Below are positions 48,001 through 54,000 of a DNA stretch of 64,000 nt, piece after piece. Made by a program: the position numbers. The stretch is from Myxococcota bacterium (GTDB taxonomy: Bacteria > Myxococcota_A > UBA796 > CAJQPC01): NCBI GenBank assembly GCA_036012755.1, contig DASCPX010000043.1:32001-96000 (forward strand), read 5' to 3'. Within the stretch, counting starts at the first letter, position 1. Each line of letters starts with the position of its first letter.

Positions 48001-51000
48001 CATAGTCGTCCGAAGCGGCACTTGCTGCGACAACGGCCAGGTCGTCTGGTAGGTCACGATGAAGTGGGCACGCTGGCTCGTCGAGCACCCGACGACCGTC
48101 CTGGTGGCGGTCCTCGCATCCCTCTACTTCGGCGTCGTCGCGTACAAGACGCTGCCTCGAGAGTCGACCCCCGACATCACGATCCCGGTGGTCGTGGTCA
48201 GCACGCCGTACTTCGGCGTCTCGCCAGAGGACATCGAGTCCCTCGTCACGATCCCGATGGAGCGCAAGCTCAAGGATCTCAAGGACGTGGACAATATGAC
48301 GTCCACCTCCTACGAGGGCGCCTCCGCCGTGGTGCTCGAGTTCGACCCCGACATCGACATCGACGACGCCCTGCAGAAGGTGCGGGAGAAGGTCGACGCG
48401 GCCGAAGCGGATCTGCCAGAAGACGCCGAGGACCCGGTGGTCCAGGAGATCTCGTTCTCGGACATCCCGATCCTCATCGTCTCGATGACCGGGCCCCAGG
48501 ACGAGGAGTTGCTCAAGAACCTCGCAGAAGACCTCGCGGACGAGATCGAGGCAGTCCCGGGCGTGCTCGACGTGAAGGTCTCCGGAGGCCTCACCCGGGA
48601 GTTCAAGATCCTCGTCGATCCCGACCGGCTGGCGCTCTACGAGGTGAGCTTCAACGACATCCTCCGCGGGATGCAGTCGGAGAACGTGAACATCCCGGGG
48701 GGCACGGTCGACGCCGACCGGACGAACTACCTGCTGCGTGTCCCCGGAGAGCTGGGCTCGGCCGAGGACATCCGGGCGGTGCCGCTCAAGAACGTGGGTG
48801 GGCAGACGGTCTTCGTGCGCGACGTCGCGCGGGTGGTCGACGGCTACGCGGAGCGCGCGACCTACGCGCGGATGAACGGCACGCCGAGCATCAGCCTGTC
48901 GATCCAGAAGCGCGTCGGAGAGAACATCATCCAGACCGCCCAGGCCTCGCGCGAGGTCGTAGAGAAGGAAGCCGAGGGCTGGCCGGAGGGTGTCGAGTAC
49001 GCCTTGCTGGCGGACCAGAGTCGCGAGATCGAGGCGATGGTCTCGGAGCTGGAGAACAACATCCTCTCGGGCCTCATCCTCGTCGTCGGCGTCCTGCTGT
49101 TCTTCATGGGCTTCCGCAACAGCTGGTTCGTCGGGCTCGCCATCCCCTTGTCGATGTTCCTCTCCTTCATGGTCATCCAGGCGCTGGGGATGACCCTGAA
49201 CATGGTCGTCTTGTTCAGCCTGATCCTCGCGCTGGGCATGCTCGTCGACAACGCGATCGTCATCGTCGAGAACATCTACCGCCACCTCGAGATGGGCAAG
49301 ACCCACGTCGAAGCGGCGATCGAGGGTGTGTCGGAGGTGGCCCTGCCCGTGGCGACCTCGACCTTGACGACCGTGCTCGCCTTCGCGCCGATGCTCGTCT
49401 GGAAGGGCATCATGGGCGAGTTCATGGTCTTCCTGCCGAAGACCCTGATCATCGTCCTGACCTCTTCGCTGGTGGTGGCGCTGGTCGTCATCCCCGCTGC
49501 GACGTCGCGGTGGATGAAGCAGGTGGCGACCGGCACCGACCTGTCCTCTGGCGTGGTCGCGGAGGGGGGCCTCTACGGCGTCCTGATAAGGCGCTACAAG
49601 CGTCTGCTCGAATGGTCCATCGACCACCGCTACGTCAGCTTCTTCGGCCTGGGGCTGCCGATCCTCGTCGGCACCCTCGTGGTCTACGGCGTCTTCAACC
49701 ACGGCACCGAGTTCTTCCCCCAGACCGAGCCCAACCGCGCCATCGTCCAGATCACCGCTCCGGACGGCACCGGCATGGAGGTCACGGACCGCATCGCCCG
49801 CCAGCTCGAGATGGTGTTGGACACGGAGTCCGACGTCGACACCTACATCACAGAGGTGGGCGTGGCCACGGGCTCGGATGGCTTCGGCTTCGGGAGCTCC
49901 AGCGTTCCCCACTCGGCCCGCATCACGGTCGACTTCAAGCCAACCATCGGCAAGGCCCGCGAGGGCGAAGCGGTACGCGAGGGCAACACCTTCGACGCCA
50001 TCGACAGGGTGCGCACGACCGCCAGCTTCGTCGTGGGAGCAGACGTCATGGTCGACAAGATCCAGGAGGGCCCGCCCGTGGGGCTGCCCATCTCGATCGA
50101 GGTCACCGGCGAGGACGTCCACGAGATCGGTCGCGTCTCTCACGAGGTCCGCCGCAAGCTCGCTGGCATCGCCGGTGTCGTGGACATCACGGACGACTAC
50201 CGCGTGGGCCGCCCGGAGCTGCGCTTCGACGTCGACCGGGCAGCGACGAAGCGGGTGGGCGCCTCGACCGCGACGGTGGCCAACACCTTGCGCACCGCAG
50301 TCGCGGGCACGAAGGCCTCTGTGATTCGGGAGGGCGAGGAGGAGTACGACATCGTCGTGTCCCTCGACGAGCGCTTCACAGAGGACATCCCGTCGATCCT
50401 GGCTCTGCACGTTCCGGGCAAGGACAACCTGATGGTGCCGCTGTCGACGCTGGCGACGGCCCGGACCCGCGGTGGCGCCGGCAGCATCAAGCACAAAGAC
50501 CGTGAGAAGATCGTGCGTATTTCCGCAGACGTGGCGGACGGCTACCGCGTGGACCTCGTCCAGGCCGAGGTCGCCACCCTCATCGCAGAGTACCCGACGC
50601 CCGAGACCGTGCGCCTCGATATGGGCGGCGCCAACGAGGAGGAGGCCAAGGCGCAGGCCTTCTTGAGTCGGGCCTTCCTCATAGCCGTGTGCCTCATGTT
50701 CATGGTGCTCGTGACACAGTTCGACTCGGTCATGCGTCCCTTCATCATCCTCGGCAGCGTCGTGCTGTCGCTCATCGGGGTCCTGTGGGGGCTGCTCATC
50801 ACGGGCACGCCCTTCGGCATCATGATGACGGGTGTCGGGGTCATCTCCCTGGCCGGCGTGGTCGTCAACAACGCAATCGTCCTGCTCGACTACATCGAGC
50901 TCCAACGCAAGCGGGGCCACGACATGCGCTCGGCCCTCGTCAGCGCCGGACTGGTGCGGTTCCGGCCGGTCGTCTTGACCGCGATCACGACCATCCTCGG

Positions 51001-54000
51001 ACTCATTCCGATGGCGACAGGGGTCAGCTTCGACTTCAAGAAGATGACCCTCATCACAGGCGGTGAGTCCGCCGCTTTCTGGGGCCCGATGGCCGTCGCG
51101 GTCATCTTCGGGCTGGCCGTGGCGACTGTGCTCACGCTGGTGATGGTGCCGACCATGTACTCGATCACAGAAGACATCGGCGGCCAGGGCGGCCGGCTCA
51201 TCGCCCTGTTGAAGCGCCTCTTCGCGGGCAAGGAAAAGGCCGCGGTGGCGGCGGTGGTGGTGGTCGGCCTGCTCGTCCCCGGCGCCGCGGATGCAGGCGA
51301 GCGGGTCACGCTGGACCAGGCGCTCTCGGCGGCCCACGCCAACAACCTGGATCTGAAGATCGTGCACGAGAACACGGTCCAGGCCGAGGCGATGATGGGC
51401 CAGGCGTTCTCGACCCTGTCGCCGAGGCTGCAGGCGAACGGCAACTACACCTACAACAAGGACGAGGTGCTGCTGGAGTTCGACCTCGACATGGCGGACT
51501 ACATCAGCGAGGGCGCCCCGGAGCAGTTCACGGAGTACCTGACGACGCCCCCACCCTCGGAGCCGACCGTCATCCAGGCCCAGCAGTACTACGACGCCAA
51601 CGCCTCGGTCGTGCAGCCACTCTTCAACGCCCCCGCCCTCCCCCTGATGAGGGGCGCGAAGGCCCAGAGATCCGCGACCTACCTCGACGAGGACCACACC
51701 CGGGCGATGGTGGACCTGGCGGTGACGCAGTCCTACTACGGCCTCGTCGTGGCCAGGGACGGCCTGGGGCTGGCGACGGACGCGGTGGACAACGGCGAGG
51801 CTCACCTGGCGCTGGCGCAGAGGAGCGTAGAGGCAGGCGCCGCGGCCCCCCTGGCGGCGATGCAGGCCGAGCTGGGCCTCTCTCGGGCCCGCCGGGCGCT
51901 GGCGGACGCCGAGGCGCAGCTGGTCCTCGCGGAGGAGACCTTCGCGCTCATGACCGGCCTGCCGAAGGACTCAGAGGTCGTGATGCCCCCCATGCCGCAG
52001 GCCCCGGTGGCTTCGCTGGAGGCTGCGCTCTCGACCATCGATGGGCGCGCCGATGTCCAGTCCGCCTACTTCTACGCGGACATGGCGCAGTACCAGCTCC
52101 GGGCGGATCAGCTCGGCTGGCTGCCCAGCGTCGACGGCCGCTTCACCTACAGCTGGACCGAGAACACGGGCTTCTCGGGAGATCCCACGTGGTGGATGAT
52201 CGCCGTCACCGCCCAGTGGACCGCCTGGGACGGCGGCTACCGACTCAACACGAACAAGGAGTGGGCATCCAGGGCACGCCAGGCCGACTATGCCGCACAG
52301 AAGGCGCGCCTGGAGGCGAGTCAGGACATCCGCGTCGCCTGGCAGCGCTGGCAGGCGGCGACCACCGGCTACGCGATGGTCGAGCAGGAGCTGGCCCTCG
52401 CGGAGGAGACCCTGGGGCTCGCCACCCGCGGCTTCGAAGCCGGCGCCAACTCCTGGCTCGAGGTCCAGGACGCCCAGCTCTCACTGGACCAGGCGAAGCT
52501 CGGGATGTTGACCGAGCGCATGGCCCGAGATCTCGCGGCGGCGCAGCTCTCTGTCGCGGTCGGCGACTACTGAACCCTGCGGCTTTGGGCTACCGTCTGC
52601 CCGGAGGCTCAACATGGACCTGAAGTGCCCGAAATGCGACAAGGCGATGGAACAGGCATTCGTGCGCGCCGGCGTCATCGGCTGGTGTCCGGAGAAGGGC
52701 TACCTCGCGCTGAAGGGGCGAGAGCGCCTCAACGTCGAGGGCGCCGCTGAGGCGTGGCGCTGCCGGGACTGCAAGGTCGTGCTGATCCAGCACAGCTGAC
52801 GGGGCGATGTCTTCGAGGGGGCGACCTCTGCAGGTCGCCCCCTGGCCCGCAAGCGGGCCACCCCACCCAGCAGCAGCGCGCCCGACCCCTCTCCTCACGG
52901 GCGTGCAAGCGCCAACCCGCTGGCGCTCCTCTGACCCCCAATGATGACCTCCACGGTTATACTCCCGGTATGAAGACCGCGATCTCCCTCCCCGACGAAC
53001 TCTTCCTCCGGGCAGACACGTTCGCCCGCCGAACCGGGCGGACGCGCAGTCAGCTCTATGCGGACGCTCTCCGTGAGTTCCTCGCCCGCTGGGACGAGGC
53101 CGATGTGACCGCGGCCCTCGACCTCGTCTGTCGCGAGGTCGACTCCAGCCTTCCAGAGGAGTACGCAGCCAACGCGCGGGAGCTGCTCGCAGGCGAAGAC
53201 TGGTGATCATCAAGCAAGGGGACGTGTGCTGGGCGAACCTCGGCGACCCGACCGGCTCGGGTCCAGACTACAGGCGCCCTGTGATCGTCGTACAAGGGGA
53301 CGCCTTCAACCGCAGCACCATCCGCACCGCCGCCTGCGTTCCCCTGACGAGCAACCTGAAGTGGGCAGGAGCGCCGGGCAACGTCGAGCTCACGGCCAGG
53401 CAGACAGGCCTCCCGAAGCCCTCCGTGGCCAATGTCTCCCAGATCGTGGCGCTCGACCGGACGATCCTCTCGCCCCGCGTCGGCCAGCTCTCCCCAGCGA
53501 AGCTCGCTCTCGTCATCTCTGGCATCGACCAGGTCCTGGGCCGGTCCACGTCTGTGTGGGGCTAGGCCGAGTACACCGTCTTGCGCAGGGTCGACTTCAC
53601 CGCGCGGATGCTCTCGTCATAGGCCTCGAAGGTGCCCTCCATGTCCATCAGGCCCCGAACCCAGGTCATCTCGCTCGCCTCGAGCGTCTCGTGGAGCGAG
53701 TCGCCTCCTTCGAGCCAGACGACCAGGTCCTCGAGCCCGTCGACGAGCACGTTGTGCTCCTCGAAGAGGTGAGCGGAGACCTTGACGTCCTCTGTGATCT
53801 CCACGACCTCTGCCCTCAGCTCCAGCAACCGACGCATCTGCTCGCCGTAGGTCCGCGCGGATCCGTGAGCGTTCATCAGGTCGCGGGCGCTCATGATGGT
53901 CCCGTGCACGTCCCGGACCCGGCGCAGGAAGTCCTCGCGCTGCCGAGCCCGTGCCGCGGCGCGGTCCCTCGAAGCGAGCACATCGTCCACGAAGGGCTTG

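Follow-up and report, generated by a model that had tools for sequence, protein, structure and literature searches.

Gene organization of the locus

The window analyzed here, a DNA stretch of 64,000 nucleotides, corresponds to positions 32001-96000 of its contig; gene coordinates refer to window positions. It contains genes for a TetR-family regulator and a periplasmic adaptor, as well as a gene in which an RND permease is joined to a TolC-type outer-membrane factor (Table 1). The TGA stop codon of the regulator gene overlaps the TTG start codon of the adaptor gene. The adaptor scored 183 bits with the RND_mfp model (TIGR01730; cut-off 94.9 bits) and has a short, lipoprotein-like N-terminus (..LSLMSC) without a basic residue. 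The window has an adaptor gene directly 5' of the fused gene, as do six examined loci with a fused gene. The sequence of the fused protein around its junction is ...VPTMYSITEDIGGQGGRLIALLKRLFAGKEKAAVAAVVVVGLLVPGAADA|GERVTLDQAL, with the vertical line marking the predicted cut. Note that an RNA-library contig covers positions 51269-51451 of the fused gene, which by itself is no proof of transcription.

Table 1. Features of the pump locus (window positions; residues are those of the fused protein)
Feature	Position	Strand	Details
TetR-family regulator	46281..47006	+	TetR_N (E 2.9e-18), TetR_C_11 (translation of 46281-47003); start codon tentative
Periplasmic adaptor (membrane fusion protein), 349 aa	47003..48052	+	TTG start; TIGR01730, HlyD_D23, HlyD_3
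Fused RND permease::outer-membrane factor gene	48059..52573	+	ATG start; 1504 codons and stop
RND permease half, residues 1-1036	48059..51166	+	ACR_tran 7-1036; end of TM12 ..VPTMYSI
Cytoplasmic basic linker (n-region), residues 1037-1060	51167..51238	+	R1046, K1052, R1053, K1058, K1060
h-region, would-be 13th membrane segment, residues 1061-1073	51239..51277	+	AAVAAVVVVGLLV
c-region, residues 1074-1079	51278..51295	+	PGAADA; A at -3 and -1
Mature TolC-family outer-membrane factor (predicted), residues 1080-1504, 425 aa	51296..52570	+	Two OEP repeats

Pump and channel share one reading frame

Translation of the fused gene yielded 1504 residues with 0 internal stops. The survey's finding of a single unbroken frame with an RND and a TolC-type half is thus confirmed by reading of the frame, by Pfam matches to both halves and by open junctions at 76 loci. 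It could be suspected that an assembly or sequencing error occurred, or that this one genome recently lost a stop codon in the manner of a pseudogene, because the source genome is an assembly of 250 contigs and, judging from split relatives, a single base change suffices to create the fusion. However, a 1862-nt contig from a separate DNA run (X6) bridges the junction, matching positions 51042-51900 without a single difference or gap. Moreover, the open junction recurs in the 76 loci, several sources contribute at least 106 non-redundant fused proteins, and the RND and channel halves are both complete and high-scoring. An artefact is therefore exceedingly improbable, and the fusion is real.

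The junction was translated as open in loci L001-L031, in six more loci and in 39 of 40 further loci. These 76 loci comprise 74 other genomes (from 400 sampled in the phylum), L001 and the locus of the window itself, and span at least 11 families. Five additional genomes among the 400 gave a stop-free match across the junction. Fused proteins, carrying both PF00873 and PF02321, accounted for 106 of the 120 matches listed, with a length of 1465-1558 aa in 101 cases and five shorter pieces; identity over the junction region was 32-74%. Thus, the fused family noted in the survey exists but is much larger than the 18 proteins quoted there, and the fusion occurs in order UBA796, as claimed, without being limited to it.

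Both halves of the fused protein are complete

The match to ACR_tran (PF00873) reached 691.3 bits (cut-off 28; E 2.7e-207) and covered profile positions 5-1019 of 1021, in agreement with the domain boundaries reported earlier. In NCBIfam, the RND half remained below every subfamily cut-off, with RND_permease_2 as the best model (589.8 vs 1250). AlphaFold2 modelled residues 1-1089 with a mean pLDDT of 85.0 and a pTM of 0.80, placing long helices at residues 2-31, 320-485, 508-546 and 858-1054, with mixed alpha/beta structure in the stretches 44-317 and 560-856. The model fits an RND permease with twelve transmembrane helices, arranged as two bundles, and a pair of large loops in the periplasm. 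Among 80 aligned rows, D397 is invariant and E404 nearly so, both being charged residues of the predicted helix 382-411 and hence candidates for the proton relay; R967 and R969 are also invariant.

OEP (PF02321) matched the fused protein with 132 bits (cut-off 22; E 2.8e-38) in two stretches, the best at residues 1327-1502; the repeats lie at contig positions 83311-83958 and 84037-84564. The AlphaFold2 model of the channel half (mean pLDDT 91.4, pTM 0.82) contains four long beta strands at model residues 84-93, 131-150, 318-328 and 338-347. Foldseek related it to TolC, SilC, CusC and OprM with TM scores of 0.68-0.83, and comparison with TolC by VIA gave Z values of about 29-30 and an rmsd of 3.4-4.4 over 387-396 residues. 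The channel half is thus predicted to adopt the fold of a TolC protomer, in line with the complete TolC-family channel with two OEP stretches proposed in the survey. In superpositions with mature E. coli TolC (1ek9, 7ng9, 5ng5; Z 28.6-29.4), model residue 44, equivalent to V1083, coincides with TolC residue 1. The predicted cut would therefore leave three extra residues in front of the TolC-like chain.

The junction has the design of a signal peptide

Between the two halves, a segment with five K/R and one E (residues 1046-1060) precedes a 13-residue hydrophobic stretch and the sequence PGAADA, conforming to the n/h/c pattern of a Sec signal peptide with an h-region of ~7-15 residues. Reading of the sequence with the simple -3/-1 rule placed the predicted signal peptidase I cut at A1079|G1080, between nucleotides 51295 and 51296 (A1079 codon, 51293-51295). 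The ADA|G site named in the survey was therefore retained, but the extent given for the signal segment, residues ~1060-1083, had to be revised: the h-region spans residues 1061-1073 and the A-D-A motif ends at A1079. The segment begins ~1045 residues into the chain instead of at its N-terminus, and hence would be signal-peptide-like in action, yet not an ordinary signal peptide. In the AlphaFold2 models, the linker prolongs the TM12 helix to residue 1054, the h-region forms a low-confidence helix (1062-1071) and residues 1073-1085 are unstructured (pLDDT <50). The signal segment as a whole was of low confidence, with no packing against the pump seen in these models. Three Peptidase_S26 (signal peptidase) genes are present in the source genome.

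We aligned 107 proteins over the junction. All had a small-x-small site that precedes the conserved V(T/S)L(D/E)xA start of the channel by at most eight residues, with alanine at -1 in 100 and at -3 in 95, counts that are biased upward because each site was picked by rule. In an unbiased test, 89 of the 107 proteins contained A-x-A within the 10 residues before the channel start, as compared to 11.7% of all other 10-residue windows and 3.3% of windows following a hydrophobic stretch in the same proteins. This bears out the earlier claim of an AxA-type site just before the conserved channel start. The n/h/c design is maintained among proteins with no more than 32-74% identity over the junction region, and it was also found in two fusions (L050 and L051) despite RND halves that are just 28.5-29% identical. 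No lipobox was seen among the 107 proteins; a cysteine occurs near the junction in two, in neither case at the predicted cut, arguing against a signal peptidase II site. Every junction examined thus retains the design of a signal peptide.

Proposed processing of the fused chain

We consider it probable that the gene encodes a polyprotein and that signal peptidase I separates its two halves at the internal signal. This reading, already put forward in the survey, is supported by the conserved n/h/c design, by the register with mature TolC, by the finding that no internal start is conserved, by the split relatives and by the three signal peptidase genes of the genome. According to this model, the operon tetR-mfp-rnd::omf would supply a normal three-part efflux pump from two structural genes, the 1504-residue product being made as one chain. 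The RND half would insert its 12 helices and terminate in the cytoplasm, where the basic linker would remain. The 13-residue hydrophobic stretch would then enter the membrane N-in/C-out in the manner of a signal peptide and initiate export of the channel half (425 residues) through the Sec pathway. Upon cleavage by signal peptidase I behind A-D-A, the released channel would take the usual path to the outer membrane, and the signal segment would stay on the pump as a short C-terminal 13th helix. With a single chain cut in two, one translation event would give one pump and one channel subunit.

Alternatively, the chain could stay uncut, with a permanent 13th helix tethering the TolC-like half to the inner membrane. 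Cleavage is deduced here from sequence, and in one family (f17) an acidic spacer of 40-90 residues follows the predicted site and could act as a tether. In the clade of the window, by contrast, the folded channel begins just 0-3 residues after the site (6 in one protein), and the first folded residue of the modelled channel matches residue 1 of mature TolC. In established pump structures, this TolC residue sits on the long barrel in the periplasm, at a considerable distance from the inner membrane. In addition, the four beta strands of an outer-membrane barrel are retained in the channel, and alanine at -1 and -3 is far above background, a feature that an anchor would not require. A tethered channel is therefore improbable. 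Cleavage by a different protease or at another position is more doubtful still. The assignment by rule alone and the nearby small-x-small alternatives G-A-A and A-A-D would allow it, but A-x-A lies at a fixed distance of 0, 2 or 3 residues from the conserved channel start in 104 of the 107 proteins.

The channel might also be made mainly from a start codon in the linker or h-region, with the long chain being a by-product or a source of the pump only. In the fused gene of the window, in-frame GTG codons in the h-region (V1063, V1066-V1068) lie downstream of the purine-rich AAGGAAAAGG. In the source genome, the signal peptides of the adaptor and of two further channel genes seem to be very short and devoid of basic residues, so that a channel start at one of these GTG codons is possible. 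Some linkers resemble a whole N-terminal signal peptide, such as L044 (MIFKGSVSAAILFIVALSPIALQA|QE) and P0004 (MPGRKAAAAAAVLFALFVPLPAQA|A), and an ATG is present in the linker of 11 of 37 fused loci. For these 37 loci, we ranked the best combination of ribosome site and start codon in the linker against windows of equal size from other parts of the respective gene. No enrichment was observed (median percentile 0.49), with just four loci at or below 0.1; the window's own best candidate (ribosome-site score -6.3 kcal/mol) ranked at percentile 0.27. Moreover, the linkers of two loci contain no ATG, GTG or TTG at all, and even loci without a start codon retain the basic n-region ahead of the h-region. 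Internal translation, mentioned in the survey as an alternative, thus found no support as a conserved start, and we regard it as unlikely.

Fused and split forms have interchanged repeatedly

In related genomes with the split form, the stop codon of the RND gene is followed after 0-12 nt by the ATG of a channel gene whose product bears a normal N-terminal signal peptide. Four split pairs of the phylum (L046, L047, L032 and L090) share the mfp-rnd-omf order with the window; their RND halves are 44-46% and their channel halves 27-29% identical to those of the window. They differ in that the RND gene ends in a stop codon (TAA, TAG) and the channel has a separate ATG. In L046 and L047, the RND stop (TAA and TAG, respectively) is followed after 3 or 0 nt by the in-frame ATG, and the signal peptides of the channels (..QQAWA|KD and ..LPAWA|AK) occupy the same place as the fused signal. 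The two genes of L032 overlap by 22 nt in different frames. In L046, L047 and L090 the RND and channel genes share a frame, so that one changed stop codon would yield the fused form. Judging from these sequences, a switch between split and fused forms can be a single-base change in the RND stop codon.

The RND tree required at least three switches between fused and split forms. Such repeated switching suggests that the fusion may be nearly neutral and not an adaptation of stoichiometry; it is equally compatible with near neutrality and with adaptation.

Relation to known efflux pumps

Tripartite efflux pumps are textbook machines, the parts of which are described as separate proteins that meet across the periplasm. 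Like AcrAB-TolC, MexAB-OprM and CusCBA, the locus of the window encodes an adaptor (TIGR01730), an RND permease (ACR_tran) and a TolC-fold channel, with a TetR regulator upstream as a further likeness. In contrast to the single frame found here, the channel of these systems is encoded by a separate gene and carries an N-terminal signal peptide or lipobox.

The Bradyrhizobium japonicum gene fbcH is said to encode a cytochrome b/c1 precursor that is separated at an internal signal sequence. As in the window, one chain would contain a polytopic inner-membrane protein together with a partner that is exported and belongs to the same complex. The proteins and the complex are different, and both fbcH products reside at the inner membrane, whereas the channel encoded in the window must reach the outer membrane.

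A text search in part of a 2021 Chem Rev review found no RND-channel fusion. Likewise, our targeted literature search, which covered few subscription journals, found no description of an RND::TolC fusion, and within these bounds agrees with the survey, in which the natural fusion was not found described in the tripartite-pump literature searched.

The motor and the exit duct of an efflux pump would occur, in a widespread natural form, as one precursor. It seems fairly likely that this is an obligatory precursor for two membranes, the pump keeping a 13th helix and the switch to separate genes being on the scale of a stop codon, and that it exemplifies a recurrent, natural way of supplying envelope machines from polyproteins. 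Confirmation would provide a clear bacterial example in which an internal signal peptide divides a membrane-protein polyprotein, with a built-in equimolar supply of two partners bound for different membranes. Such equimolar supply would offer a handle on the matching and assembly of channel and pump. Fused genes are publicly named either only as 'RND permease' or only as 'TolC family protein', and as a consequence the numbers of channels and pumps counted in these genomes are incorrect.

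One reading frame for pump and channel

Translation agreed with the survey's finding that an RND permease and a TolC-type channel (outer-membrane factor, omf) are encoded by a single fused frame, which opens at an ATG and runs stop-free to its end. In Pfam searches the product matched full-length ACR_tran (residues 7-1036, E 2.7e-207) and, for the TolC-family outer-membrane factor, a pair of OEP repeats (E 2.8e-38); none of the NCBIfam subfamily cut-offs was reached. The gene order is tetR-mfp-rnd::omf (mfp, periplasmic adaptor). Thus, all three pump parts are present at the locus, two of them within one gene. 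AcrAB-TolC-type pumps have the same parts, whereas this locus differs by the single frame and an internal signal. The same genome carries four further channel genes and about six further RND genes, none of them fused. Note that the two ORFs just 3' of the fused gene may be non-genes, the DNA being 68% G+C.

Features of the pump locus and its surroundings (window positions)
Feature	Position	Strand	Description
ORF, 455 aa	44090-45457	-	Contains leucine-rich repeats (LRR_14, LRR_4); oriented divergently to the tetR-pump operon
TetR-family regulator gene			5' of the adaptor gene; stop overlaps the adaptor's TTG start
Adaptor gene (mfp)	47003..48052		Directly 5' of the fused gene; TIGR01730, 183 bits
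Apparent short signal of the adaptor	47003-47035		Seemingly minimal, free of basic residues
Fused gene (rnd::omf)	48059..52573	+	1504 codons
Predicted signal peptidase I cut	51295|51296		After A1079 of the fused protein
ORF, 207 aa	52590-53213	-	No Pfam match at E 0.001
ORF, 676 aa	53226-55256	+	No Pfam match at E 0.001

The fusion is conserved and widespread

A protein search with residues 980-1300 listed 120 proteins, of which 106, sharing 32-74% identity in this stretch, carry both Pfam families; their lengths are 1465-1558 aa in 101 cases, and the other five are shorter pieces. The remaining 14 are RND-only and match little beyond the last helix. At the genome level, 132 of 400 other genomes sampled in the phylum matched at E 1e-10 or below. 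The frame lengths returned by this search run through in-frame stops: for loci L046 (genome G042), L047 (G012) and L090 (G344), reported as 1534, 1543 and 1553 aa, our own translation yielded two genes with an in-frame stop between them. Fusions were therefore counted only from our own translations or from matches that span the junction. By translation, the junction is open in 37 loci (L001-L031, L044, L045, L048-L051) and in 39 out of another 40, representing 74 other genomes, three of which consist of a single contig, from at least 11 families. In five additional genomes the match itself crosses the junction stop-free. Within the window's own order, the fusion was counted in 33 of 59 sampled genomes. 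A search of genome contigs with the C-terminal 505 residues found one locus only, L001 (65% identity).

In DNA run X6, which is not flagged as a potential source of the window's DNA, a 1862-nt contig covers 51042-51900 with no differences and no gaps. Contigs of runs X7 and X8 leave 51110-51314 uncovered. An assembly or sequencing artefact is excluded, so far as sequence can show, by the X6 contig together with the 76 open junctions. A contig from an RNA library (X19; 51269-51451) spans 183 nt, too little to demonstrate a transcript or to place its ends. Metagenome runs from marine, seawater and hydrothermal-vent sources (X1-X20, 14 studies) contain window positions 50700-51900 or close copies of them; contigs were aligned to the window for X6, X7, X8 and X19. 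Public annotation already displays the architecture, some proteins bearing the JGI name 'AcrB/outer membrane protein TolC'. A literature search whose coverage leaves out most subscription journals found no paper on a natural RND-channel fusion, and a term search in the accessible part of a 2021 Chem Rev review gave nothing on this subject.

Both halves are complete

Because a PDB sequence search with the channel half returned weak matches only (SilC and CusC, E about 1e-5), a comparison of folds was required. The model of residues 1040-1504 (mean pLDDT 91.4, pTM 0.82) contains four long strands and long helical hairpins. Foldseek aligned it to TolC, SilC, CusC, OprM and TOprJ1 with TM scores of 0.68-0.83, and VIA superposed it on TolC with Z 29-30 over 387-396 residues. 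The model of residues 1-1089 (mean pLDDT 85.0) has the secondary-structure pattern of an RND protomer. Thus, both halves of the fused protein are complete. Both models render the signal segment as a helix of low confidence and residues 1073-1085 as unstructured. Since pLDDT in the RND model is 45-62 from residue 1050 on, and the h-region is placed against the pump without confidence, we do not propose that this region packs on the pump as a small accessory helix would.

The junction has the design of an export signal

The sequence after the last RND helix reads ...VPTMYSITEDIGGQGGRLIALLKRLFAGKEKAAVAAVVVVGLLVPGAADA|GERVTLDQAL. A basic stretch with five K/R in residues 1046-1060 is followed by a hydrophobic run of 13 residues (1061-1073) and then by the c-region PGAADA, in which positions -3 and -1 are both Ala. 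The A-x-A site proposed in the survey held up; the position of the cut did not, our prediction lying four residues earlier. Superposition on several TolC entries placed model residue 44 (V1083) on residue 1 of mature E. coli TolC, so that the predicted mature chain begins three residues before TolC's signal peptidase point.

This design is conserved. In all 107 aligned fused proteins, a small-x-small site precedes the conserved channel start V(T/S)L(D/E)xA by no more than 8 residues; the distance is 0, 2 or 3 residues in 104, and Ala stands at -1 in 100 and at -3 in 95. These counts are inflated, as the sites were picked by rule in each protein. As an unbiased control, A-x-A was found within 10 residues before the channel start in 89 of the 107 proteins, compared to 11.7% of all other windows and 3.3% of windows after a hydrophobic stretch in the same proteins. 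No lipobox was seen among them; two Cys lie near junctions, neither at the predicted cut. Of 45 more distant fusions whose junctions were read by eye (L044, L045, L048-L051 and 39 of L052-L091), nearly all had the same n/h/c order, with typical ends such as ..AQA|QE, ..ANA|QD and ..AHA|A. The order is kept in L050 and L051, whose RND halves are just 28.5-29% identical to that of the window. Assignment of these two loci as heavy-metal (CzcA-type) pumps was dropped, NCBIfam ranking a multidrug-type model first for both.

Processing of the fused product

The conserved signal design, the register with TolC and the existence of split relatives, in which pump and channel are separate genes, are best explained by the survey's proposal of an internal signal cut by signal peptidase I, which we consider likely. 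Both termini of RND proteins are cytoplasmic. The basic linker would accordingly remain on the cytoplasmic side, and the h-region would insert N-in/C-out, beginning export of the 425-residue channel half by the Sec route that also serves the large periplasmic loops of the pump itself. Signal peptidase I would then cleave at A1079|G1080, the channel proceeding to the outer membrane and the signal staying on the pump as a 13th helix. Three S26 signal peptidase genes are present in the genome. The nearest known mechanistic precedent is Bradyrhizobium fbcH, reportedly a precursor of cytochromes b and c1; a literature search for this precedent and for internal signal peptides gave nothing useful beyond the fbcH citation.

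Alternatively, the chain might stay uncut, tying the channel to the inner membrane. In the window's clade this is unlikely: just 0-3 residues (6 in one protein) separate the site from the folded channel, and in TolC structures the first channel residue is located along the long periplasmic barrel, well away from the inner membrane. In family f17 (L044, L045, L052-L077), an acidic low-complexity spacer of 40-90 residues lies between the predicted site and the folded channel. This spacer, absent from the window's clade, makes a tether geometrically possible in the f17 proteins.

The channel could also arise from an internal translation start. For 37 fused loci, each in-frame ATG/GTG/TTG in the linker was scored by upstream pairing with the anti-Shine-Dalgarno sequence, and the best score was compared with equal windows taken from other parts of that gene. 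An internal start was not conserved across these loci (median percentile 0.49; four loci at or under 0.1); 11 have an ATG in the linker and two have no ATG, GTG or TTG. The absence of a conserved start with a ribosome site argues against internal initiation. In the window's gene itself, initiation at a GTG within the h-region, the top candidate (-6.3 kcal/mol, percentile 0.27), is possible. It might be objected that the signal of such a product would be too short, but this argument is weakened by very short signal peptides seemingly present in the same genome, on the adaptor and on two or three other channel genes. Of the four further channel genes, one alone (contig 70, MHKTLRHLTLVLVLLCPLLGWA|GQ) carries a signal peptide of the classical type. 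The adaptor and two channel genes, located around position 9400 of contig 71 and around 13400 of contig 18 (L102, L104), seem to begin with minimal hydrophobic signals free of basic residues, examples among the three being MILLLSLMSC.. and MLLLLSLAMA|DD. Either these starts are miscalled or the organism tolerates minimal signals. Cleavage by signal peptidase I remains the reading we favor, and the polyprotein is probably processed into two ordinary proteins.

Split relatives and recurrent switching

The RND genes of L046 and L047 terminate in TAA or TAG and, after 3 and 0 nt, an ATG in the same frame opens the channel gene. This ATG lies behind GGAG-type sites and begins ordinary N-terminal signal peptides (..LLTQQAWA|KD and ..MALPAWA|AK). 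As judged from these sequences, one changed stop codon in such a pair would produce exactly the fused layout. L090 is likewise split in frame, and L032 is split with a 22-nt overlap. The shared frame in three of the four adjacent split pairs was not used as evidence, because its chance probability is about 0.11. Among 10 unfused relatives, six lack a channel gene in the 2.5 kb that follow; in the other four, the channel match begins about 105-660 nt past the RND stop, once on the opposite strand.

Trees of RND halves (FastTree, 58 sequences; IQ-TREE, 26) each require at least three changes between fused and not fused, indicating that fusion and fission are recurrent. Thirteen unfused proteins form a single clade nested among fused ones. 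Forcing all fused rows together cost 399 log-likelihood units (AU p 1e-37), with L040, L050 and L051 on long branches and this group being defined by the trait itself. The recurrent switching is explained equally well by a change of small cost and by selection for equal partner amounts.

The window's order contains, in its family f6, channel genes that stand alone (L033-L043; 38-42% identity to the channel half of the window). Within ~4-5 kb on each side, contig permitting, 10 of these 11 loci lack any RND or adaptor match; the exception, L040, lies within an mfp-rnd-omf row. In family f33, the unfused RND genes of L090 (G344) and L100 (G264) end in an extra hydrophobic C-terminal helix before the stop (..ITGLLLICLLAYALISKL.. 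and ..WAVALAGLVAVSLLAWKLI..). The next channel gene has its own signal peptide in L090, and the channel match is on the opposite strand in L100. The extra helix may be left over from a former fusion, or it may be a 13th helix that serves a function of its own.
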